Positions 3,222 to 60,152 of a stretch of 64,000 nt of DNA are shown here, in pieces (the first letter of the stretch is position 1; every line of letters begins with the position of its first letter). A program made the position numbers and the translations under genes. The stretch comes from Podarcis gaigeae (lineage: Eukaryota), in the NCBI GenBank assembly GCA_964106915.2, contig OZ066920.1, one strand, 5' to 3'. Under the pieces are notes generated by a model. It had not been told where the DNA came from. It saw nothing but the letters and a program-made list of their open reading frames with translations, and did no database searches.

Positions 3222-3932
3222 CGTCTTCGTCATCGTTTAGTCGTTTAGTCATGTCCGACTTTTCATGACCCCATGGACCAGAGCACGCCAGGCACTCCTG
3301 TCTTCCACTGCCTCCTGCAGTTTAGTCAAACTCATGCTGGTAGCTTCGAGGACACTATCCAACCATCTCGTCCTCTGTTGTCCCCTTCTCCTTGTGCTCT
3401 CCATCTTTCCCAACATCAGGGTCTTTTCCAGAGAGTCTTCTCTTCTCATGAGGTGGCCAAAGTATTGGAGCCTCAGCTTCAGGATCTGTCCTTCCAGGGA
3501 GCACTCAGGGCTGATTTCCTTAAGAATGGATACGTTTGATCTTCTTGCAGTCCATGGGACTCTCAAGAGTCTCCTCCAGCACCATAATTCAAAAGCATCA
3601 ATTCTTCGACGATCAGCCTTCTTTATGGTCCAGCTCTCACTTCCATACATCACTACTGGGAAAACCATAGCTTTTACTATATGGACCTTTGTTGGCAAGG
3701 TGATGTCTTTGCTTTTTAAGATGCTGTCTAGGCTTGTCATTGCTTTTCTCCCAAGAAGCAAGCAGTGGCGTAGCGTGGGGGGTGCAGGGGGGGCCGGCCG
3801 CACCGGGTACAACATCTGGGGGTTAGGGGGCGCAAATCCATGGGTTAGGAGGTGCAAATTACTTGCCTTGCCCCGGGTGCTGACAACCCACGCTACGCCA
3901 CTGGAAGCAAGGGTCTTTTAATTTCATGGCTG
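3222..3932 (-). mobile_element. Bov-B (RTE clade) LINE, 5'-truncated 3' fragment, interrupted by a hAT MITE
   Basis: Minus-strand peptide LLLGRKAMTSLDSILKSKDITLPTKVHIVKAMVFPVVMYGSESWTIKKADRRRIDAFELWCWRRLLRVPWTARRSN...WRALVHGVMKSRT is the Bov-B ORF C-terminus; the LINE resumes at 3912 after the MITE. Confidence 0.95.
3763..3903. mobile_element. hAT-family MITE nested in Bov-B
   Basis: Perfect 17-bp TIR CAGTGGCGTAGCGTGGG / CCCACGCTACGCCACTG; perfect 8-bp TSD GAAGCAAG at 3755-3762 and 3904-3911. Confidence 0.93.
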
Positions 3933-5638
3933 CTCTCAAAAACCATGAAATTAGCCGTAAAAACAACTATTTGAAACATTCAGAATAAAATTGAAATCAA
4001 TGATAAGCTAACAACCATATTAAAACACCTGTCAACATTCTACATATCTGGTTGAGTCGTGCCTAACAAAATCATGGAAACGGTGTGCAGGCGATAATAA
4101 CGAAAAGGAGTTTTTCAGCGGGGCGATCTTTGTGTGGCTGTTAACAGTGTTTCCTTACAACACTGAAAGTGACTTTAAAAGGCAGGGAGAGAATAAGAAG
4201 TGAGGAATTGTAGAGGATTTTGATGTCAAGATGCCTTCCCCATGCTTTTTGTCACTTGTGGCTAGAGAAGACAGGATTCCTGGGTGTGTGTGTTGGGGTG
4301 TGTGTGCCGTTCCTGCCAGAGGATACAATCAACCTGATTCTGTAGCTTCTGCTTTCCATTTTATGGTCTCCTGCTGGGTTGGCAACGGCAGCTTGTGTAT
4401 GAGCTGGAGGGAGGAGGGGAAAGGGAGCTTTGGAGAGGTCCGCAATGGAACCGGGGGGGGGGGGGGATTTTTTTCCTTGCCTCATCCTTTGCATGTTTTC
4501 TTCTCTCTTCTCACAAGGCTCCCTCGCACATCCATACGCTTTCCCTCCGGACATAATCATAATCATACCACAATAGGAGAAGGCTTCCTCATTATTTCGC
4601 TCTGTCCTACCCCGCTCTTCTAACTCTCACCGTTTGTGAAGAAAATGAAATGAAACTGTGCGACAAGGGACAGCCAGTCTCCCAACAGGTGGTGATCTAA
4701 TCATTTTCATCGTCACATTTCTCCTCCTCCATCTGCTCAGGAGAGCTTTGGTCGTGCTGGCCCAGTTCTCAAGCTTTCTTTCTTCTGAACTCTTTCTCTT
4801 TCCCACAGTTCCCTTGGGGATTCGCTTTTTTGGAGCTCACTATCGCTTTGGTTGGGTTGCTGCCTATGCATCAAAGGAGGCTTTTTGTGTTTTATTCCTA
4901 AAGGGTAAAGCATTTTATTAAATCTTGCAGCCAGATCTACCTTGTGGGCTCACAGCATTCTTGGGCAGGTTGTCCTTCACCTGCCTGATGCTGAGTTCAA
5001 GCCCCAATAAGAACATAAGGGGGGCTTTCTTCCCAGTGCCCAGGAAGCTTCTTCCTGGCTTATGGAGGGAGGCGCAATGCTCACATGTGCGACTGGGCCA
5101 TACATGCTTTGGGGCTAGTTATTGGGGGGGGGGGTTTCATAGTTATGGCCAATGTGTGGAGAAGTGGAGATTTGTGGATGGGAATGTGGGAGGAGGGAAT
5201 TTTAATTCAGGCACATCCAATTCCACCCCTCATGGCAGTATACGTCCTGGGGTAAAATCCTTTAAAAAGCTCAGCAACGTCAAACCTTAAAAAAGTTGAA
5301 CAACTTTGGTCAGCCCTCACACGTTCACTTTGGGCACCCCTGTTTTAATTGCTCTGCTCTGGAATGGCTGAGTATTCATGCTGCTGCTGTGTTTAGTGAA
5401 CGAGCATCAAGACTCAGCATCCCTGTAACACCCCCCTCTCCCCTGCACAAGCTGTCTCGCACCCTTAGCAGTGAGAAACCGGTTGCCATGACTACCGCCT
5501 ATAAAAAGGTCATCTTCAGGAAATTCCTTCTGTAGGCAGAGTAGCACCAGGATGAAACTTCCTGTAGGAAGGTTAAAGAACGGTCTACATTATACAGAAT
5601 GATAAATATCTTGGTGGCTTCTTGTAATCTGCCTCATA

Positions 5639-5641
<3 letters not shown>

Positions 5642-5670
<29 letters not shown>
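5642..5670. repeat. (TA)n microsatellite, left flank of PLE insertion
   Basis: Pure AT run abutting the element. Confidence 0.95.
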
Positions 5671-5674
<4 letters not shown>

Positions 5675-6230
5675 GGTTTTGGTGTCCTCGGGTGTCTTCC
5701 CGTGTAAAAGTTGGGGTGTCTAGGCGACGTTTCGACGAGGTCTCACTCGTCATCTTCAGGCTGGTGCTTTCGGCTTCTTGTTACTGGAACAGAGCGGGAT
5801 CTCAATGTTTGAGTTCCTATAAATACTGTAGAGGGGGTGTGGTGTCTAGCCTCCAATGTTCTGGGCAGAGAGGAAGTTCCCAGGCTAGTGTGCCTTTTCT
5901 TCTTTTGTTCCTTAATTACTTGAGAGATACCTTGAGTGATTTCTTGAGTGATATCCTGAGTACCACTTAGGTGGGTCATTAGGTGTGGATTAGTTGCTAA
6001 AGTCTTTGTGTCTTGACCTCTTGAACTTTGTGAAGAGTTTTCCTGAGAAGATGGCTGTATTGCACTTAGTTGTGCTTTGGCTTGGCTTCGTGTATAGGGG
6101 CGAGCTGTGGTTTTGTGGCTTGTGTCAGCCAGATCTGTGTAGGGATTGCAGGGGGGTGCAGCATCCGGAGGTGCCACCATGGATTGGCTACTGGATGGTG
6201 TCAGTAATTCATCTGTGGAGAGGGTCTGGG
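5670..6230 (-). mobile_element. Penelope-like element 3' region / pseudo-LTR, copy 1
   Basis: 5670-6152 is the reverse complement of 6231-6713; carries a hammerhead motif and a stop-free frame ending PEDDE*; inserted in (TA)n. Confidence 0.8.
5723..5762 (-). ncRNA. Minimal type-I hammerhead ribozyme motif (copy 1)
   Basis: Reverse complement reads AGC-CUGAAGA-U-GACGAG-UGAGAC-CUCGUC-GAAAC-GUC-GCC. Confidence 0.75.
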
Positions 6231-6740
6231 CCTGCAATCCCTACACAGATCTGGCTGACACAAGCCACAAAACCACAGCTCGCCCCTATACACGAAGCCA
6301 AGCCAAAGCACAACTAAGTGCAATACAGCCATCTTCTCAGGAAAACTCTTCACAAAGTTCAAGAGGTCAAGACACAAAGACTTTAGCAACTAATCCACAC
6401 CTAATGACCCACCTAAGTGGTACTCAGGATATCACTCAAGAAATCACTCAAGGTATCTCTCAAGTAATTAAGGAACAAAAGAAGAAAAGGCACACTAGCC
6501 TGGGAACTTCCTCTCTGCCCAGAACATTGGAGGCTAGACACCACACCCCCTCTACAGTATTTATAGGAACTCAAACATTGAGATCCCGCTCTGTTCCAGT
6601 AACAAGAAGCCGAAAGCACCAGCCTGAAGATGACGAGTGAGACCTCGTCGAAACGTCGCCTAGACACCCCAACTTTTACACGGGAAGACACCCGAGGACA
6701 CCAAAACCTGCATTCCTGTACCCGTGAAAATCTACGAAAG

Positions 6741-6743
<3 letters not shown>
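6231..6743 (+). mobile_element. Penelope-like element pseudo-LTR, copy 2 (inverted partner, longer 3' end)
   Basis: Same sequence in opposite orientation, extends about 30 nt further (…cccgtgaaaatctacgaaagcaa) then (TA)n. Confidence 0.8.
6621..6660 (+). ncRNA. Minimal type-I hammerhead ribozyme motif (copy 2)
   Basis: CUGAAGA 6624-6630; 6-bp stem II GACGAG/CUCGUC 6632-6637/6644-6649; GAAAC 6650-6654; cleavage triplet GUC 6655-6657; stem I only 2 bp. Confidence 0.75.
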
Positions 6744-6789
<46 letters not shown>

Positions 6790-6795
6790 ATATAT
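6744..6795. repeat. (TA)n/(TATG)n microsatellite, right flank of PLE insertion
   Basis: AT run followed by TATG units. Confidence 0.95.
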
Positions 6796-7073
6796 GCCTG
6801 TGTTTTACTGCCACATCAGTAGGAGAGCCAGAGTCTCTATGCATCTGGGCCAGCTGTTTTTTGGTAGTCTTCAGTGGAAAGCCCAGAAGCGCGTGTGCTA
6901 AGTGCCATACTTAGTATGACAATCATGATGACAGCTTGAAAGGAGGAGTGAAAGAGTTGATGCAGTTCCCTTCAGCTTTCCCTCAAGTGTCTTTACCCAG
7001 ATCCATCTCCCAACATATTAGTGGAATGACCATTAGCTGCTAAACCTTAGGGTAATGCAAACATAAGCATATA

Positions 7074-7344: not shown

Positions 7345-8040
7345 TTGGGATGTGCAAATACGTCAGTTTTGCATTCTCTTGGTTTCTTATTCTTCAAACC
7401 TTAAGTTCAGACCTCCACTTTCCACATCAGTTTTTGATGGTTTTTTTTATTGAAAAAAACATCATCATGGAAGCTCATGTGCATTTGGGGGAAAATTTCT
7501 CCTAATATACCCATGTCTCTATAAGCCATTTTTGCCTAATACATGAATTTTTCTGAAAAGCAGTTTTCCTGATACAATTCATATTTGTATGCTGTTTTCA
7601 CTAGTACAGTGGTACCTCAGGTTAAGTACTTAATTCGTTCCGGAGGTCCGTTCTTAACCTGAAACTGTTCTTAACCTGAAGCACCACTTTAGCTAATGGG
7701 GCCTGCTGCTGCCGCCGCGCCGCCAGAGCCCGATTTCTGTTCTTATCCTGAAACAAAGTTCTTAACCTGAAGTACTATTTCTGGGTTAGCGGAGTCTGTA
7801 ACCTGAAACGTATGTAACCTGACGCGTATGTAACTCGAGGTACCATTGTATGTGCATTTATACACAGACTTTATTTTATGCATTTTGTGTGTGCACATTG
7901 CTTGGCAGGAGAACGGCAAAATTAATAAACGTGCACATTTTGAAAAATGGCTACGCTTCCTTTTGTATGTTATTTCAGAAAGTGCAAAGGATGTAAGTTT
8001 GCCTTTAAATGCAAATTGAATCGAATCTTTCCCCCATCCC
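7345..8040. mobile_element. Older non-autonomous DNA element (GGGATG…CATCCC ends), interrupted by MITE A
   Basis: Similar to 39241-39602 (reverse) and 58021-58545: shared ttccacatcagttt, ttctcctaatata, gagaactgc motifs. Confidence 0.65.
7607..7848. mobile_element. MITE family A copy 2
   Basis: TIR CAGTGGTACCTC / GAGGTACCATTG, TA flanks; one extra tgtaacctga subrepeat. Confidence 0.9.
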
Positions 8041-13489: not shown

Positions 13490-13762
13490 TCCACAGCCGA
13501 AAGCATGCCAGTATGGGTAGATAAATAGGTACTGCTGCAGCAGGAAAGTAAACGGCGTTTCCGTGAGCTCTGGCACTCGTCGCGGTGTCCTGTTGTTCCA
13601 GAAGTGGTTTAGTCATGCTGGCCACACGACTTGGAAAAGCTGTCTATGGACAACGCAGGCTCCCTCTGCCTGAAAGCAGAGATGAGTGCCACATCCCATA
13701 GTTGAATTCGACTGGACTTAACCACCCAGTGGTCTTTTACTTTTACTTTTACCTTTACCTTA
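13490..13762 (+). mobile_element. Sauria (Squam1) SINE, 5'-truncated older copy
   Basis: gtagataaataggtac…gtaaacggcgtttccgtg…gtcatgctggccaca…(ACCTTT)-like tail; reverse of the copies at 26991, 57624 and 59803. Confidence 0.85.
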
Positions 13763-15863: not shown

Positions 15864-16592
15864 CTGCATATAGCAACAATACTGGCAGGTATTAAAGTTG
15901 CTGTGAAAACGGCAGCAATAATAACTACTTTGGTAACCAGCAATCAAGTATTTGAAACTGTAGTAGTAATTACTTGCACTAAAAGGTACATAAGCTTAAC
16001 AGCATTTTCAGGGTCAGTGTGAATGACTGATCATTCTTCTCCTTTTTGGAGCTTTAGCACCACACTATACTCAAAACATCATCTTTGGCAGGCTGAGAAG
16101 TATGTGGCAGTTATTTTGTGAGTTCGTGACATGATGGGCCATATAATCAGAGGCTTTTGACTGATGATTCCAAGTGTCTTATGTCTGAGGGTGAGACCTG
16201 CACTTGCAGTCTTTACTGTCTAGACATAGATATTGACAAACAAGCCTCGCTGACATAAGATGCTAACATGCTTAGCCAGAGGCATTTCAATGATCTTGCC
16301 CTTTTATGTTCTCTTTCCAGGCTTTTAGTCAACTGTGAAATGTACCTCTTAAGATCTATCACATTAATTCCACAAACAAAACTTTGTGTTTTGAAACTTA
16401 GAAACTTTACTATTGATTGATTGGTTTTTTTATCAGTTGTAGGCTAAACTGTGCAGGTGGAGGGTTTTGTTCTCCAGAGGCTGCGTGAAGAGGTTGCATA
16501 TTTTTCTAAAGCATTCAGAGATGTTGCAATCAGATGTAAAAAAAATAAAAGGCCTTGCTTTATCGTGATGAGAACAGTCTGGTTGTGATGTA

Positions 16593-16807
16593 CAGTGATA
16601 CCTCGGGTTAAGTTCTTAATTCGTTCCGGAGGTCCGTTCTTAACCTGAAACTGTTCTTAACCTGAAGCACCACTTTAGCTAATGGGGCCTCCCTCTGCTG
16701 CTGCGCCGCCAGAGCACGATTTCTGTTCTCATCCTGAAGCAAAGTTCTTAACCTGAAGTAGTATTTCTGGGTTAGCGGAGTAGTGTATGTAGCATGAGGT
16801 ACCACTG
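16593..16807. mobile_element. MITE family A copy 3
   Basis: TIR CAGTGATACCTC / GAGGTACCACTG, TA flanks. Confidence 0.9.
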
Positions 16808-17046: not shown

Positions 17047-18467
17047 CTAATCCTAAGGAAGATGAATCCTGTGCATGACGGTTTGGCCTGTGATGTTGCA
17101 TTGATACAATTGCATTTCTACACAATCGTATCTGTTTGACCAGGTGCAGTGCAGCATCTTAGGAAGACCCATGCTGATGCATTTGATAGCATCCTAAATA
17201 ATGCTAGTATACTTGGACATTATTATTATTTTTACTATGTTGGGTGTCATATTAAATTTTGAGATCAGTTAATACATAGCACGGTGACACTGAAGGCAGT
17301 TTCACTTGCCAAAATCTTAGGAAGGCAGCAGGTGATGTATAGCAGTGAAATATATTTTTTCCTCTCTGCTGCCTCTCAGTGGTTTAGTTCTGAAGGAATA
17401 ATTATCCAGTATTGCATGAATAATATCCAGTTGCAGTTCAGAATTCCACAGGAGGGCAGCCTTATCCCAAGCTATGTTACAGTGGGTGAGCAAATCATGA
17501 CATTTTAAAATAAAACCCACACAGATACTTTTTTATTTTTTAAAAAAGCTATATAAAAATAAACTAGGAATACTTTAGAAAAAAACAACCAAACAAAACA
17601 AACCCTAAAGCAAAAAGTGCAACTATGCATTGGTTAGTATCCATTGCCTTCCAAACTAGGCTTATATTATGTGCCACAGAAAAATCAATAATATGCTGGC
17701 CTGCGTATTCTAACATCCCTGACAAACATTTGCTGTATTTTACAACACAAGATGGGCTTGAAATTCCCTCTCATTTGTTTTGCATGAAAATGCTTTGATG
17801 GACACTGAATACATTTTATTTGGATGGAATTGTATTTTAAAGGTGCAAAGAAAATAATGAATTCTATTGGTATCCTACTCTTCCTCCAAAATGTCCAGGG
17901 AGGTATATTACCTTTAAGACCTCCCTGGGAGGCTGGCTAGACCGAGAAGACATTGTTAAAGGAAACACAGCAAGCTTTGTGGCTGAATGAGGACTTGCAG
18001 TCGTGTCTCTCATGCTCAAGTGCAAGTCTAGTCACTACACCACACAAGTACAAGCAGATATGTGCAAGATTGACACCTCATGCAGTCATAGTTCTGCAAT
18101 TCAGTCATAGTTCTTCCTCTCTTCTTGACGTACTAGTTGTTGTAGCAATTTGATACGGCCTAAGGAATAAGGTAGGTGGGCATCAATTTGATCGAGAGTC
18201 GTTCTGCATTTCTTTGTTTGTGCTTCTTAGGGAAGTGGACTGAGGGTACAGAATCTTGATGAGATGTGAACCTATAGCTGAATCACTCTAAGCTTGGGCT
18301 GCAGCCCTGTCCTAAGCTGTATTTGAATAAATCACATTAAAAGCAAAGGGATTTACTGTTTGCTGAATAGTGGATGTGTTTCAGCTCAATACATTAATAC
18401 ATTCTCTGCTAAGGTTTTCATCTAAACTTTTCTACAACCCATTTCAGAGTTTGCCTAAGCTATAGAT

Positions 18468-18603
18468 CAGGCATCCCCAAACTCCGACCTCCAGATGTTT
18501 TGGGACTACAACTCCCATCATCCCTGACTACTGGTCCTGTTAGCTAGGGGTGATGGGAGTTATAGTCACAAAACATCTGGAGGGCCGAGTTTGGGGGTGC
18601 CTG
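18468..18603. mobile_element. hAT MITE (short, internally palindromic)
   Basis: TIR CAGGCATCCCCAAACTC / GAGTTTGGGGGTGCCTG; 8-bp TSD CTATAGAT/ATATAGAT. Confidence 0.88.
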
Positions 18604-20223
18604 ATATAGATGTTTGCTAGCCCCAGCTTGTAGGTAAGGTTGTCACTGCCTCCAACAGTGGCTGAAGCAGGAGTTACACCATTCTGACACCAACATGCGA
18701 AGATGGAACAGGAGTGAGAAAGGGTAGTGGGAAGGTTAGACACCAAAACCTTACAATTTTGAAGTGCTCAGTCACACACCTTGTGTCAATATTTAGGGAC
18801 AATTCACTATTCCTCCTTATCTTGAGGCTTTTCAGTTTTACATTTAGTGTAACTTCATGGTGGCAGGGTCAACAAACAAGCAGGGTGGGGCTTATCACTG
18901 AGCAGTCTCATAGGTCTTCATGTAAGTACCTGAGTTACCTATTATTTCTCCAGAAAGAAAGAAAAACATGTTTGCAATTCTGTCTTCCCTGTTCACGATT
19001 AGAATCAAGGACTTTGTACAGCACACAACAGCATAGTTCATTCAAATGCAATATATGCATTTATTTGGGACTCTTATCCGAGCCTGAATGAAAAATACTA
19101 TCTTTCTCAAGAAGGCAATATGTATATATTTTTTATCTAAAGAAAGGCAAAGAGTCACAGAGATACTGAATGTTGACTATAGCCAACAATTTATAGCTTC
19201 TCTCCCTCTTTATTTTGTGGTGTAGGGCAATGCTTTTCCACTCTGATTTAATTAACTTCATTTAATGGCCTGGTCATAGAGATAATAAGCATAGCAGCAG
19301 CATAGCGGCTGCACTATCAAATGCCTGGCATTGACTAATATTTGGCAACAATATGGTCATTCTACAATGGAAGCACATACAAGAAAAGAGCAGCCTATTT
19401 ATTAATTTGCCAAGTTCCCCCCTCCTTTGGGAAGGCTACTGTGCATTTCTTCGAGACTGATTGAAACAGAAAGCAAGAGTATATGGTGGTGAATACTGTT
19501 TTTAGTGTGTTGGAGTCATTTAGCAAAAAGTGTTCCTTCAGGAAAACAGAATCAAGATGCTAATGTTATACCTCATTTATTGCCAAGCATATTCAGTGAC
19601 ATTTCATAAGGTACATCTGTCAGCCAGAGATATAAATGAATGAGGTGAACTGTGCAATTTACCCTGAGGAACTTCCATTAGAGCCCCCTGAAGTATAATA
19701 TTTATGAGGTCAGAGTCAATTAATCAGATAGCTGTATTTGCTTTTCAGCTTGCGACGGTCTCTCACCAAACTGTTGCACTGAGAGGGAAAATGCTTTTCT
19801 TTTCAATAATAATAATAAACAAAATGGGGAAAAAATGTAACATTCAGGTTGTTTAGATAAGGGCTGCATTTTTAACGACAACAAAATCAATTACTGTATG
19901 TTAACTACAGAAAAACACAATGTAAATATAAAGGAGCATGCCATGGTGTCCGTCGGAGCCTGGTGGCTCAGCTGAGGGCTTAGGCCCCTGGATGTGCTGC
20001 TTCCCCCAGAAATATGGGTGTGGTCATGGAACTGAGGTAAAAGTGAGGGAACAAAGGCCTTGTTTAGAAGGGAGCTGGAGACTATAGGTAAAGAAAATGT
20101 CTCCACTTCCATTGGAGGTGAGACTGCTTTGCTTTGGGGCTTCTAAAGACTGCAGTTCTGTATCCACATTCCCAGAGTACTGTATGTCTGTCAGTGGGTC
20201 TTAATTCTGCCTAGAAAGGACTA

Positions 20224-26331: not shown

Positions 26332-26990
26332 TACCCATAGTACCCAAAGCTGCTTGAGTTATTTTGGCATCTGAAGCAGAAGATTCCACAAGTGCCTCAC
26401 CCCTTCCCTGGAAGTAAATACATACTATTAAATAATAATGTTGGTTCATTAATTTGCTGCTCTTTCATGACACTCGGCAATGGTCTGTCTCTACCAAAAT
26501 AGCAGGAAAAGCCTTTTTTGTGGTCATGAGATGACTCTTGGCAGCATGCAACCCTTTTTAGAACATCTCTCTCCTAAAGTTTGAATGACCGAGCAAGATT
26601 ACATAAGATAAGCTGGTCCAACAAGATGTACCTGGTTGCAAGTTGTTAAATGATTTTATATGCTAACAGCAGAATTTTAAACATGGCCCAGTAGCATTTT
26701 GGCAGCCGGTGCACCATGGGATAAAAGCCCCTTATTTCCTTCTTTCAGTTCCCCCCATGCTTCCAGTGGGGGAGTGCTCCAAATAGCTGTTTATTGATTC
26801 AAATTGGAAAAATGAACCTCGCTGCAGTCAATGCAATGGTGGTTTAATGGCTCAGAGCAGAACTACTGAAGCTCAGGGGTCTCTTAATGAGCAAAAGATT
26901 TGCAGCAATTTCCTCATTTTCTGAGCATGATGTGAACAGCAACTGCAGCAGCAAAGACAACAGTCTTTTAACATTATAAGAAAGTCAGTA

Positions 26991-27342
26991 AAGGTAGAGG
27001 GACCCCTGACCATTAGGTCCAGTCGTGACTGACTCCGGGGTTGTGGCACTCATTTCACTTTATTGGCCGAGGGAGCCAGCGTACAACTTCTGGGTCATGT
27101 GGCCAGCATGACTAAGGCACTTCTGGCGATCCAGAGCAGCACACGGAAATGCCGTTTACCTTCCCGCCGGAGCGGTACCTATTTATCTACTTGCACTTTG
27201 ACGTGCTTTAGAACGTGCTTTAGGTTGGCAGGAGCAGGGACCGAGCAACGGGAGCTCACCCCGTCGCGGGGATTCGAACCGCCAACCTTCTGATCGGCAG
27301 GTCCTCGGCTCTGTGGTTTAACCCACAGCGCCACCCGCGTCC
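26991..27342 (-). mobile_element. Sauria (Squam1) SINE, full length
   Basis: Minus-strand tRNA head (A box TGGCGCTGTGG, B box GGTTCGAATCC), ACCT(T/C)T tail, perfect 13-bp TSD AAGAAAGTCAGTA 26978-26990 / 27343-27355. Confidence 0.95.
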
Positions 27343-33263: not shown

Positions 33264-33391
33264 NNNNNNNNNNNNNNNNNNNNNNNNNNNNNNNNNNNNN
33301 NNNNNNNNNNNNNNNNNNNNNNNNNNNNNNNNNNNNNNNNNNNNNNNNNNNNNNNNNNNNNNNNNNNNNNNNNNNNNNNNNNNNNNNNNNN
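33264..33391. other. Assembly gap (N run)
   Basis: 128 N. Confidence 1.
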
Positions 33392-36260: not shown

Positions 36261-36418
36261 NNNNNNNNNNNNNNNNNNNNNNNNNNNNNNNNNNNNNNNN
36301 NNNNNNNNNNNNNNNNNNNNNNNNNNNNNNNNNNNNNNNNNNNNNNNNNNNNNNNNNNNNNNNNNNNNNNNNNNNNNNNNNNNNNNNNNNNNNNNNNNNN
36401 NNNNNNNNNNNNNNNNNN
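36261..36418. other. Assembly gap (N run)
   Basis: 158 N. Confidence 1.
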
Positions 36419-40513: not shown

Positions 40514-40793
40514 TGTTGTTGTTGTTGTTTAGTCGTTAGTCATGTCCGACTCCTCATGACCCCATGGGCCAGAGCACACCAGGCACTCCTGTCTTCCACT
40601 GCCTCTTGCAGTTTGGTCAAACTCATGCTGGTAGCTTCGAGAACGCTATCCAACCATCTTGTCCTCTGTCGTCCCCTTCTCCTTGTGCCCTCAATCTTTT
40701 CCAACATCAGGGTCTTTTCCAGGGAGTCTTCTCTTCTCATGAGGTGGCCAAAGTATTGGAGTCTCAGCTTCAGGATCTGTCCTTCCAGTGAGC
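40514..40793 (-). mobile_element. Bov-B LINE, short 5'-truncated copy
   Basis: MRREDSLEKTLMLEKIEGTRRRGRQRTRWLD…; (CAA)n tail; 12-bp TSD GCTCAGTCCCTT 40502-40513 / 40794-40805. Confidence 0.95.
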
Positions 40794-41489
40794 GCTCAGT
40801 CCCTTAATAACCTCTAAATTCAGTTTGGTGTTTAAGAATGATGAATTATGTTCTAAAGTTAACCTCCCATATGTGAAAGGTTTGTATGTGTGTGTGTGTT
40901 TTAAAGTGTAGGATTTTCTTGTTACAGCAGAAGAAGCTGCATTTCCAGGATATATCCATATGGACCAAACAATTGTATTTCCCCACAACTGTTCACCAGT
41001 TTTCCTTTGGAATACTTTAAGAATCAGTAACAAGGAGACAAAACATCAGCACTGTAAAATCTGGTTGATTTATAAAAAAGTGAAAATATTGGTCATTTTG
41101 GATCAGTTAACAAAAGAGTACACCTGAAAATTTCAGTTGCTCTCTGTAAAGCTTACAGTGGTCTGGTTGGTAGGCCACATTAGATCATTTCTATCACACC
41201 GTTCCTCTCAAAGGACATCTAAACACATTAAGAACAAGGGCCAGCAGGGGTTCAAATTTGGCCCATGAGGCTGCTTGCTCCAAACCATGGCCACTTCCCC
41301 CTCCAAATGTCACCCATTTATTTATATAACATAATAGCTATACCACTTGATTGATCTAAGTGGCTTATAACAGGAACAACCAGGACTCCCAATGGTTTCT
41401 TGGCAAGTAGGACTCCCTGTCCATACTAGCCTTTACATTGTGCCTTCAGATGTTCTAAACATCATCAATCTTAAACTTCATTAATAAAC

Positions 41490-49497: not shown

Positions 49498-49628
49498 NNN
49501 NNNNNNNNNNNNNNNNNNNNNNNNNNNNNNNNNNNNNNNNNNNNNNNNNNNNNNNNNNNNNNNNNNNNNNNNNNNNNNNNNNNNNNNNNNNNNNNNNNNN
49601 NNNNNNNNNNNNNNNNNNNNNNNNNNNN
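49498..49628. other. Assembly gap (N run)
   Basis: 131 N. Confidence 1.
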
Positions 49629-50452: not shown

Positions 50453-51892
50453 AGAGCTGTGGCTCATTGGTGGTGTGCATGCAAAAGGTCCTAGGTTGAA
50501 TTCCTGGCATCTCCTACAACCCCGGGGGGGGGGGGGGGGCTATGGCTTCAAACCCTGGAAAATTGCTGCCAGTAAGTGTAGACACTCTGGTGACATGTGT
50601 ACAGTAGTACCTCGGGTTAAGAACTTAATTTGTTCTGGAGGTCCGTTCTTAACCTGAAACTGTTCTTAACCTGAGACACCACTTTAGCTAATGGGGCCTC
50701 CTGTTGCTGCCACGCCACGGCTGCTGCACAATTTCTGTTCTCATCCTGAAGCAAAGTTCTTAACCCGAGGTACTATTTCTGGGTTAGCGGAGTCTGTAAC
50801 CTGAAGTGTCTGTAACCCGAGGTACCACTGTACATACTTTTTCCCTGGTAGCACCCGTGTTATGAAATGCACTCACTGCAGAGGACCCATCTGCACTGGC
50901 GTTCTGTAGCCTTTTGAAGATGCACCTGTTTACACAGGCATTCCCTTGATCTCTCAACCTGAGCCTCCTGTTTTAATTGCGGCGCTGCTTTAATGGGATT
51001 GTTTTAATTATGGATGTTTCTGCTTCACCATTTGATCTTAGCCATGATGGCTATTAGGCCCAGCCTCCACAATCATACTTCTGAAGACCATTGGCCAGAA
51101 ATTGCAGGAGGGACTCAACTTTTGCTTGCAGGTGCCATAGGTACCATCTCATTCCGAAGATTGTGGGTGCCCGCAACGGAGGGCTACAACTTTGCCCACT
51201 GACTTTGTGGGGGCCCAGCCCCCACAAATATATTATTGTGGGTGCCAAAGCACCCATGCCCCCCTGGAGTTGGCTCCAGTGGCAGGTGACATGGGCCAGG
51301 AGTCTGCTTTGCTGGATGAACAGCAGCCTGAAGGGGGAGTGACTCCATCTGCAGCTGATCAGAGGAGAAAGCACTGAAGAGAACCAGCTGGCTCTGGCCT
51401 TCTCAAGCAGAGCTCTCAGCAGCAGTCAGATGCTGAAAACAACACCTGTGGTTCCTGGCCCAACCTTCCTGCTCTCTATCTGGACCATTGGCTTTGGGTT
51501 CATCTGGGTTCCCTCTGGACTGTCTGACTCTATGTGGATTCTGCTCTCAGGCAAGTGTTTCTCAGAGACTCCTAGCCCCTGCTTGCTCAGCAATGGAACT
51601 TGGATGGAGCTATGACAGCAGGTTTCCCTCAAGCATCTGGGTGGCTGCACTAGATAGGCCATTGGCTTGATCCAGCAAATTCTTCTTATGTCCTTACGAT
51701 GGGATTGTTTTATTGTATGTTTTGATTATGGTTCTTTATATGTTTGTGTAACTGGTTTTTATGCTCTGCAGGCAGCCTAGAAACCTATTTTGACATCAAG
51801 CAATTTATAAAGCAGACACCACCACCACCAATTAATTAGACAATACTGAGCTAGGTGGACCAATGAGCTAACCCGATATAAAGCAGCTTCCT
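50453..51892 (+). mobile_element. L2-tailed tRNA SINE split by about 1.25 kb of nested insertions
   Basis: Head ends …tgccagtaagtgTAGACA (50584); tail resumes TAGACAatactgagctaggtggaccaatg (51837). Confidence 0.6.
50602..50830. mobile_element. MITE family A copy 4
   Basis: TIR CAGTAGTACCTCGGGTTA / TAACCCGAGGTACCACTG, TA flanks. Confidence 0.9.
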
Positions 51893-57623: not shown

Positions 57624-58010
57624 AAAAGGTAAAGGTAAAGGGACCCCTGACTAATAGGTCCAGTCGTGACCGACTCTGGGGTTGCGGCACTCATCTCGCT
57701 TTATTGGCCGAGGGAGCTGGCGTACAGCTTCCGGGTCATGTGGCCAGCATGACAAAGCCACTTCTGGTGAACCAGAGCACCGCACAGAAACACTGTTTAC
57801 CTTCCCGCCGTAGCGGTACCTATTTATCAACTTGCACTTTGACATTCTTTTGAACTGCTAGGTTGGCAGGAGCTGGGACCGAGCAACAGGAGCTCACCCC
57901 ATCGTGGGTATTCGAACCACCGACCTTCTGATAGGCAAGTCCTAGGCTCTGTGGTTTAACCCACAGCGCCAAGTCCTAGGCTCTGTGGTTTAACCCACAG
58001 CGCCACCCAT
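57624..58010 (-). mobile_element. Sauria (Squam1) SINE with 34-bp 5' tandem duplication
   Basis: (ACCTTT)n tail; 12-bp TSD GAATTGGAGATA 57612-57623 / 58011-58022. Confidence 0.95.
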
Positions 58011-58545: not shown

Positions 58546-59802
58546 TGTGTGTAGAGACCACCACTGTGGCTGTGGAGCACCTGAAATTCGGATGCTGACA
58601 AAACCCACATGCCCTAAAATAGTGTCCCAGTTAGAAGTAAATCTGAATCTCTACCCTGCCCTGCCAGCCTTTCCTCGCTTATTTGGCTTGGTGAATGGAG
58701 CCACTGGCAGCACGAGTAAAGTGGTAGCAGGGAGGTCTTAGAAGAGGTTCCAGGCTCCCTTTCTCCCTGGCACCTTCTAAAATACTGCCACAGCAGTGTT
58801 CCAAACAGCAGGGATCTTGGGAACTCTAACATGAACTGGTGCCAGGAGTCCCGGAACATGCGGTTTCCAGGGCAACTGATGTCCAGAAAAGGGACTTGGT
58901 TGTCTTGGAAAAATAACTGCTCCTAGAGTCCCCTGGCACAAAATAGCCATGTGGAACAGTATTAATGGCATGAGAGTGAACACAGAAGAAATTATTATCT
59001 GGTCAAAGCTTTATGCTCTTGTCCTTTATTTTAAAAAATCAGGAACCTTCCCCTCCCTAACCCTATCAGCATATAAATACACATCCTTTCACAATGCATT
59101 ATACACAGTTTTAATATACGAAACAACCCCCCAGATTCCACCTTCCCATCTCTGCTACTAAATACCGTATATGGAAAAGTGTAACAAGGAATCATAGGAG
59201 CTCACCTCCTAGGGGCTGAGGGGGGCTTTGGGCTCCCCCATAAAATATTTGAGGGGGATTGCCCCCCCCAAAGTTGAAGGGCATTGCCATTCAAATAGTG
59301 GGTGCGCATCAAGTCGTGTGATTGATTATGCGGGGCAGGGCCTACCTGGACCCCCCATATTTTATTCAAATTGGAACCCCTGCAAGGAATATCAGTTTCC
59401 AAATGTATTGTTGCACACCTTGGAATCTCCAAGCAGTGCAAGATTCCAAGGGCTTGTGTTTCCTTTGGAATAAGGAACAGCGGAGACTATGGTGTTTTTA
59501 TGGTTTATTTACACAGATATACAACCTGAGCCTATGATGGAGGGGTTCACAGCATTAACACCCCAAGAGGGCCTTGCTTCCCCCATAGCTGCAGCTTTGG
59601 ATTAAAACAGAAATCAAGCATCGCTCTGCCTATTTTGGTTCCCAGTTTGCTACTTTTCTTTTAGCTCACATCACTCCAAACTCTCTGCTCTCAGTTCTGG
59701 CTTTGTCCTTCCAAGTATCAGAGGGTCAGGGGAGGGACCCCACTTATTTGCCACCTAGCACAGATCCACTTCCTTTGTTCCCCTTAATGTTCTATCACCT
59801 TA

Positions 59803-60152
59803 AAGGTAAAGGTAAAGGTACCCCTGCCGGTACGGGCCAGTCTTGACAGACTCTGGGGTTGTGCGCCCATCTCACTTAAGAGGCCAGGGGCCAGCGCTGT
59901 CCGGAGACACTTCCGGGTCACGTGGCCAGCGTGACATCGCTGCTCTGGCGAGCCAGAGCCACACACGGAAACGCCGTTTACCTTCCCGCTGGTAAGCGGT
60001 CCCTATTTATCTACTTGCACCCGGAGGTGCTTTCGAACTGCTAGGTTGGCAGGCACTGGGACCGAGCAACGGGAGCGCACCCCGCCGTGGGGATTCGAAC
60101 CACCGACCTTTCGATCGGCAAGTCCTAGGCGCTGAGGCTTTAACCCACAGCG
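59803..60152 (-). mobile_element. Sauria (Squam1) SINE, different and CpG-rich subfamily
   Basis: (ACCTTT)3 tail, B box GGTTCGAATCC, TSD TCACCTTA 59795-59802 / 60153-60160. Confidence 0.93.

Follow-up and report, generated by a model that had tools for sequence, protein, structure and literature searches.

A head-to-head pair of truncated Penelope-like retrotransposon copies in an AT microsatellite of Podarcis gaigeae

The DNA considered here is a stretch of 64,000 nt from Podarcis gaigeae (GCA_964106915.2, contig OZ066920.1), called the window below. It contains an inverted repeat whose arms, 5670-6152 and 6231-6713, are exact reverse complements of each other (483/483 bases, 0 mismatches), with 78 nt between them. 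Pairing is lost at the first base both outward and inward of the arms. No other inverted repeat of the window is as long, the runner-up being 156 nt at 78%. The initial annotation had given these arms and this spacing, had called the arms near-perfect and had described the arrangement as head-to-head. All of this holds: the identity is complete, the 5′ ends of the element meet centrally and its 3′ ends face outward. The span of 5670..6713 given to the duplication is correct for the arms, but the insertion reaches about 6743-6745, a 30-nt tail having been overlooked. The spacer is of the length reported, but it is no linker, being native element sequence of the left copy. The features are the following:

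5642..5671, no strand: left (AT)15 microsatellite, target site; its last AT (5670-5671) is common to the end of the left copy
5670..6230, minus strand: left copy, the 561-nt 3′ end of a 5′-truncated element, tailless; ends 84 nt past the start ATG
5724..5761, minus strand: mirror hammerhead motif of the left arm, predicted with the same descriptor as the right one
6153..6230, minus strand: 78-nt spacer, native element sequence present in the left copy only; its minus-strand translation lies within the related proteins P0001 and P0003
6229..6234, no strand: head-to-head junction, with a possible microhomology of 2-3 nt
6231..6743, plus strand: right copy, the 513-nt 3′ end of a 5′-truncated element, tailed; ends 114-116 nt past the start ATG
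6233..6640, plus strand: low-complexity C-terminus of the element ORF, lying downstream of the endonuclease; stop codon 6638-6640
6422..6468, plus strand: 12-nt tandem repeat (3.9 copies) in the coding tail, mirrored at 5919-5961
6622..6659, plus strand: predicted minimal type I hammerhead motif; core from 6624, predicted cut after 6657
6630..6746, plus strand: start of the next ORF unit; ATG at 6630 in the ribozyme core, 38-39 codons
6714..6743, plus strand: tail of 30 nt, right copy only; fits the optional one-sided tail of 30-40 nt of EN+ Penelope-like elements
6744..6795, no strand: right (AT)17 run (6744-6777), passing into degenerate AT/GT repeat; second half of the target

AT runs adjoin both ends of the insertion, whose right limit lies at about 6743-6745. 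The (AT)15 and (AT)17 runs are the only ones in the window of more than six units, the other two runs of at least five units having 5 and 6. An AT microsatellite, the kind of target used by EN+ Penelope-like elements, is thus present on both sides. Both ends of the insertion appear to finish on an AT common to the microsatellite, the right one by way of an inferred Ile codon, and a target-site duplication cannot be read within (AT)n. Outside the AT runs the flanks are mutually unrelated unique sequence and are not mirrored. There are three runs of N in the window, at 33264-33391 (128 N), 36261-36418 (158 N) and 49498-49628 (131 N), the nearest of them more than 26 kb from the inverted repeat. 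Searches with blastn and tblastn found no further copies of the element in the window.

The window holds other repeats. A short interspersed repeat, which we take to be probably a non-autonomous DNA transposon, occurs in four copies (941-1132, 7604-7795, 16590-16781 and 50599-50790), two of them 94% alike. SINE-like copies lie at 26984-27336, 57625-58008, 59802-60145 and, inverted, at 13517-13697; two of these are the only CpG-rich spots of the window, and the repeat, we presume, resembles the Sauria SINE. A 264-nt repeat, probably a retroelement 3′ end, is found twice (3245-3508 and 40536-40799, 94% alike). A short MITE-like inverted repeat at 18463-18608 has 68-nt arms that are 87% complementary across a 10-nt gap. 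We also take 5482-5495, about 150 nt to the left of the target microsatellite, to resemble an RFX X-box; this may be chance.

When the open frame of the right arm was used as query, three of the 264 candidate proteins matched (P0001, P0002 and P0003). In tblastn comparisons with P0001, an unnamed protein of 368 aa, the left copy agrees at 162/163 residues over 6234-5746 and at 161/161 over 6228-5746, and the right copy at 135/135 over 6233-6637. P0003, a reverse transcriptase (RT) protein of Podarcis muralis, is 74% identical to the locus over 111 residues (tblastn) and 89% identical to P0001 over 316 residues. It has an RVT_1 match (E 4e-16) followed by a GIY-YIG match (E 1e-3, below the cut-off); P0001 has a GIY-YIG match at E 6e-4, also below the cut-off. 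EN+ Penelope-like elements typically have one ORF in which a GIY-YIG domain lies C-terminal to RT; this layout is therefore seen in the relatives and not in the truncated locus, which encodes neither RT nor endonuclease. The locus comprises only sequence downstream of the endonuclease and therefore cannot move by itself. In common with EN+ Penelope-like elements, its copies are 5′-truncated with an inverted copy adjoining.

The clade can be narrowed further. A CX2-5CxxC linker between RT and endonuclease is present in Neptune and Nematis and missing in Penelope/Poseidon (PMC8557442). P0001 and P0003 gave no match to this motif, which points to the Penelope/Poseidon clade. P0001 also has Cys 88, Cys 91, His 126 and His 132 (the His residues being read from the sequence), which fit that clade. 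The RT trees include the protein P0198, which resembles the Anolis element PAc (see below), and contain no named Neptune or Nematis element. Membership in the Neptune clade was rejected, as was a MITE or DNA transposon, the arms being retroelement ORF sequence. We conclude that the locus is almost certainly a Penelope/Poseidon-type retrotransposon insertion in an (AT)n microsatellite. Both the assignment to Penelope-like elements and the inverted pseudo-LTR arrangement proposed at the outset are thereby borne out, the former by the 161/161 match to a GIY-YIG protein, the latter by the head-to-head 5′-truncated copies.

The third match, P0002, is a TSNAX gene model of P. muralis. Its last 104 residues (about 165-268) are the C-terminal tail of the element, 92% identical to the copy in the window, and replace the remainder of the Translin domain; either the model is mis-annotated or a copy lying in a TSNAX intron has been exonised. 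A TSNAX gene in the window was rejected, as P0002 matches the window solely through this element-derived end. A PDB sequence search returned four distant reverse transcriptases and no Penelope-like structure. No full-length protein sharing the N-terminus was found, neither of two candidates giving a score. The DNA of other copies was also looked for in a bacterial and archaeal collection and, as expected, there were no relatives among 87 pattern matches and no exact matches. Among the relatives P0001-P0153, many of them fragments, 19/153 have, in their C-terminal 70 residues, short basic motifs (type Y-x-L-R or T-R-S). Such motifs recall the chromatin-tethering motif of foamy virus Gag.

The end of the element ORF runs into a predicted ribozyme. 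The hammerhead motif would have a 6-bp helix II with a 5′ bulged base, a palindromic minimal helix III and a helix I of only 2 bp; a minimal hammerhead has been described in which helix II is long, a base is bulged and helix III is palindromic (PMC4209133). The descriptor made for this analysis matched twice in the window, once per arm, and not at all in 50 simulated windows. Rfam gave 30 matches up to E 5 over 5400-7000, none of them at the gathering score and none a hammerhead. A microRNA was rejected, the Rfam microRNA matches reflecting only the stem and the AT repeats. At the level of the motif, then, a hammerhead in the pseudo-LTR, as in EN+ Penelope-like elements, is predicted in each arm. 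A non-LTR retrozyme was considered and rejected: these are non-coding and consist of units in head-to-tail tandem, with one type I hammerhead per unit (10.64898/2026.07.22.740005), whereas here the copies are inverted, are built of ORF sequence and form no tandem array.

The next ORF unit, from ATG 6630, overlaps the last 11 nt of the upstream ORF. Three features coincide at 6624-6640 and again at the mirror position 5743-5759: the end of one ORF, the start of the next and the core of the ribozyme. The same overlap may account for the similar acidic residues in or near which P0214 and P0010 terminate. The peptide read from ATG 6630 has the M-x6-KRR register, shared with 3 of 82 long relatives; two of these three, P0158 and P0160, are in the same clade, which has a support of 99. 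At its end is an E-[NS]-L-[RK] motif, displaced by one residue from where Anolis P0198 has it. Its N-terminal profile score is weak, although it ranks 1 of 1,387 (E 0.87). A stem-loop over the start-site region is no stabler than in shuffled sequences (z -1.25, 20/200).

The best point of comparison is PAc, a Poseidon element of Anolis carolinensis. PAc nicks and extends both strands in vitro, favoring DNA that is AT-rich; its RT starts 111-118 nt into the ORF, and its tail is the stretch between two start sites (PMC11167929). The PAc ORF begins at helix II of the ribozyme, the cut falling 26 nt past the start codon (PMC11167929). At the present locus the ORF start likewise lies at helix II, the predicted cut following the start codon by 25 nt. 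The tailed copy ends at +114 to +116, within the positions at which PAc starts RT, and the tailless one at +84. The target is AT-rich here too, the relatives have the same order of RT and GIY-YIG in their ORF, and 6722-6740 matches the PAc RNA (PMC11167929, supplementary figure 1) at 13/19 positions by eye. There are also clear differences. Identity to PAc is 39% over 181 residues of the thumb-endonuclease region (47% for P0003). The ORF here has a far longer C-terminal tail, which extends across the ribozyme and into the ORF's own start, leaving no untranslated gap. PAc has a pseudo-LTR of at least 145 nt ahead of its start.

P0198 is, we infer, PAc, as its N-terminus matches the RNA of that supplementary figure. 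In a quick tree of 20 rows the AU test rejected a single clade for four squamate proteins (p-AU 1.9e-6); all the trees were quick ones. The low identities (39% and 47%) and the AU test led us to reject membership in the PAc (Poseidon_Ac) family. A Vipera latastei protein, 82% identical to P0003, groups with the family of the locus. P0001, P0003 and P0004 on one side and P0198 and P0214 on the other make at least two separate squamate lineages of Poseidon type, one lacertid-viper and one Anolis. In these quick trees, in which sampling is thin, the nearest named relatives of each lineage are insect proteins, and separate acquisitions of the two are possible.

Similar structures have been described in other families. 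An inverted, 5′-truncated adjacent copy with a one-sided tail of 30-40 bp is common in Penelope-like elements; the structure is thus already published, the source calling it frequent (PMC8557442). As in insertions of Penelope in Drosophila virilis and of related elements in Adineta vaga, an inverted 5′-truncated copy stands beside a direct one, a tail is found on one arm, and the pseudo-LTR takes in the first codons of the ORF (PMC2377424; PMC3846280; PMC8557442). In contrast to those insertions, there is here no full ORF between the repeats, no palindrome at the junction and no readable target-site duplication. Close pairs of minimal hammerheads on opposite strands, from truncated elements, have been noted already in Schistosoma; there they are about 100-700 bp apart, whereas the two cores here are 865 bp apart with a helix I of just 2 bp (PMC4209133).

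Of the routes to such a structure, we somewhat favor priming from both target strands. The element protein would have nicked both strands of the AT repeat, as the in vitro work on PAc suggests. Each free 3′ end would then have served as the primer of one cDNA, the tail-proximal start site being used for one of them and the tail-distal site for the other. Synthesis would have broken off early in both cases, at similar lengths, and the 3′ ends of the two cDNAs would have been joined, possibly by way of the 2-3 nt of microhomology. The perfect inverted repeat would then be a by-product of integration, and the arms would owe their identity to having been copied at the same time from a young source. 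There is some resemblance to twin priming in LINE-1, in which the two target strands serve as primers and a head-to-head inversion results, often joined by microhomology. Twin priming, however, inverts an upstream segment and does not duplicate the 3′ end, which is here present twice. Among the points that weigh against priming from both strands, a single locus cannot separate double priming from a fold-back with a second priming event, and the results on PAc come from a different family.

The junction has some bearing on the joining step. In the minus-strand reading a single base there, the first one outside the left copy, deviates from the native frame (Ala for Thr), and the next codon is again the native Gln; a Gln codon there has a chance of about 0.03, a figure to be read with the knowledge that it was spotted after the fact and that the native bases were inferred from protein.

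Fold-back of a single copy is a rather unlikely route, though it accounts for the native spacer. One cDNA, or an antisense RNA, would have snapped back with a loop of 78 nt and extended itself, the tail being added by another, short priming event. What the longer copy has in excess is precisely the spacer, the truncation points being only 78 nt apart, and the possible microhomology would suit a snap-back equally well. Self-priming on an antisense template has indeed been proposed for head-to-head Penelope repeats (PMC3846280). The difficulty is the tail. As sense-strand sequence that the left copy lacks, it cannot come from the left cDNA through fold-back alone, and an extra step is required. 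Moreover, the junction has no palindrome of the kind seen in rotifer elements, the inward pairing failing at once, and PAc nicks and extends both strands in vitro (PMC11167929).

Whatever the route, an inverted repeat of this length raises the question of double-stranded RNA. Predicted folding of a transcript of 5600-6800 gives an uninterrupted 483-bp stem on either strand, at about -1072 and -1057 kcal/mol, compared with -99 and -115 kcal/mol for single copies; in the plus-strand fold the ribozyme core is predicted to be buried in the duplex. Any such duplex could plausibly be edited by ADAR. A spacer of 78 nt makes cruciform extrusion less likely, though single strands could form hairpins at replication. 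This predicted folding potential is a consequence of the geometry and not evidence of expression.

It seems unlikely to us that transcription, whether by read-through from the host or from an antisense promoter in the pseudo-LTR, crosses both arms and yields a long dsRNA whose dicing or editing contributes to silencing the family. As to host transcription, none of the 373 window ORFs of at least 55 aa reached the Pfam curated cut-off, a search that would miss short or domain-free exons. Sub-threshold Pfam matches to SACK1 and LAT were rejected as chance or low complexity. The window may lie in a long intron or hold short or domain-free exons. There is a T-over-A skew of +0.050 (0.009-0.090) in the first 16 kb and of +0.027 (0.010-0.044) in the whole window, and no G-over-C skew; the former is a faint hint of plus-strand transcription, but the strand skew overall is equivocal. 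Of the earlier claim that read-through folds into a duplex of about 480 bp, the folding is thus upheld by the prediction, but none of the results supports transcription across the arms, siRNA production or editing.

Promoters within the element would be the other source. The characterized Penelope promoter of D. virilis is internal and reads downstream (PMC2377424). Were the same to apply here, both copies would read outward and give no hairpin. A bidirectional promoter, such as has been suggested for rotifer pseudo-LTRs (PMC3846280), would give the hairpin. In D. melanogaster transformed with Penelope, siRNAs match the inverted repeats of the element, which favors a dsRNA product, but they were judged not to silence the element efficiently (PMC3681739; PMC3136932). 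Those Drosophila loci share with the present one a long perfect inverted repeat of element sequence; transcription and small RNAs have been demonstrated there, whereas the present locus is known from its sequence alone, and the idea of siRNAs from Penelope inverted repeats is not new (PMC3681739). No report of reptile endo-siRNAs from Penelope-like elements was among the papers listed by a literature search. On balance, the locus probably has no meaningful RNA output.

An assembly artefact, either a fold-back chimera or near-identical family copies collapsed into one path, is highly improbable. The perfect identity, the N gaps that mark a scaffolded assembly and the AT microsatellites at both ends might raise the suspicion, and such structures are known to trouble short-read assemblies (PMC8557442). 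An artefact should hardly leave flanks that are different unique sequences rather than mirror images, or an asymmetry that makes biological sense: a tail on one side, a native overhang on the other, and a tailed end at the published RT start position. Collapse of reads could have inflated the identity of the arms, without inventing the structure; this too we consider doubtful.

The age of the insertion remains to be considered. The absence of differences in 483 positions bounds the divergence of the arms at 0.62% (95%). Neutral substitution proceeds at roughly 2e-9 per site per year. With this rate and that bound, the insertion would be under about 1.5 million years old. CpG o/e is 0.49 in the right copy, which has 11 CpGs in its arm, compared with 0.25 in the window. 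The lack of arm divergence had been ascribed initially to either very recent insertion or ongoing gene conversion; the first fits better, because a longer, independent copy agrees with the arms and the unpaired spacer at 161/161 residues. Although closely spaced inverted repeats can convert each other, an older insertion kept uniform by conversion is extremely improbable, as under conversion the two arms could diverge jointly from the family, and as the frame is still open and the CpG content about twice that of the window.

In sum, the locus is probably a single, recent, dead-on-arrival insertion of the Penelope/Poseidon clade, its arms copied together, and is most likely functionless. By itself it matters little, truncated transposon copies of this shape being well described. 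Of minor interest are the way in which the ribozyme overlaps both the end of one ORF and the start of the next, and the second Poseidon-type lineage in squamates. No description of the lacertid family was found in the titles and abstract openings listed by literature searches; the family may be unnamed or may simply be catalogued in Repbase or Dfam.

There is a more ambitious reading, which we consider very unlikely: an active lacertid Poseidon lineage, distinct from that of Anolis, leaves perfect inverted repeats through priming from both strands, and the dsRNA from their read-through, which for the present copy may be on the plus strand, is diced and silences the family, making for a self-limiting retrotransposon in a reptile. 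If this were true, the 483-bp dsRNA would cover the promoter, the ribozyme and the region of the ORF start. The locus would then also document, in vivo, a single event in which the two RT start sites served on opposite strands. Hairpin siRNAs, if demonstrated, would extend the Drosophila observation to a reptile.

The formation of inverted repeats by Penelope-like elements has been named an open question (PMC8557442). For models of this process the insertion is a clean example: they would have to account for arms of similar length, one to each start site, for an overhang of native sequence and for a possible microhomology. Were many insertions of this kind present in a young family, a simple genome-wide comparison could test priming from two strands against fold-back.
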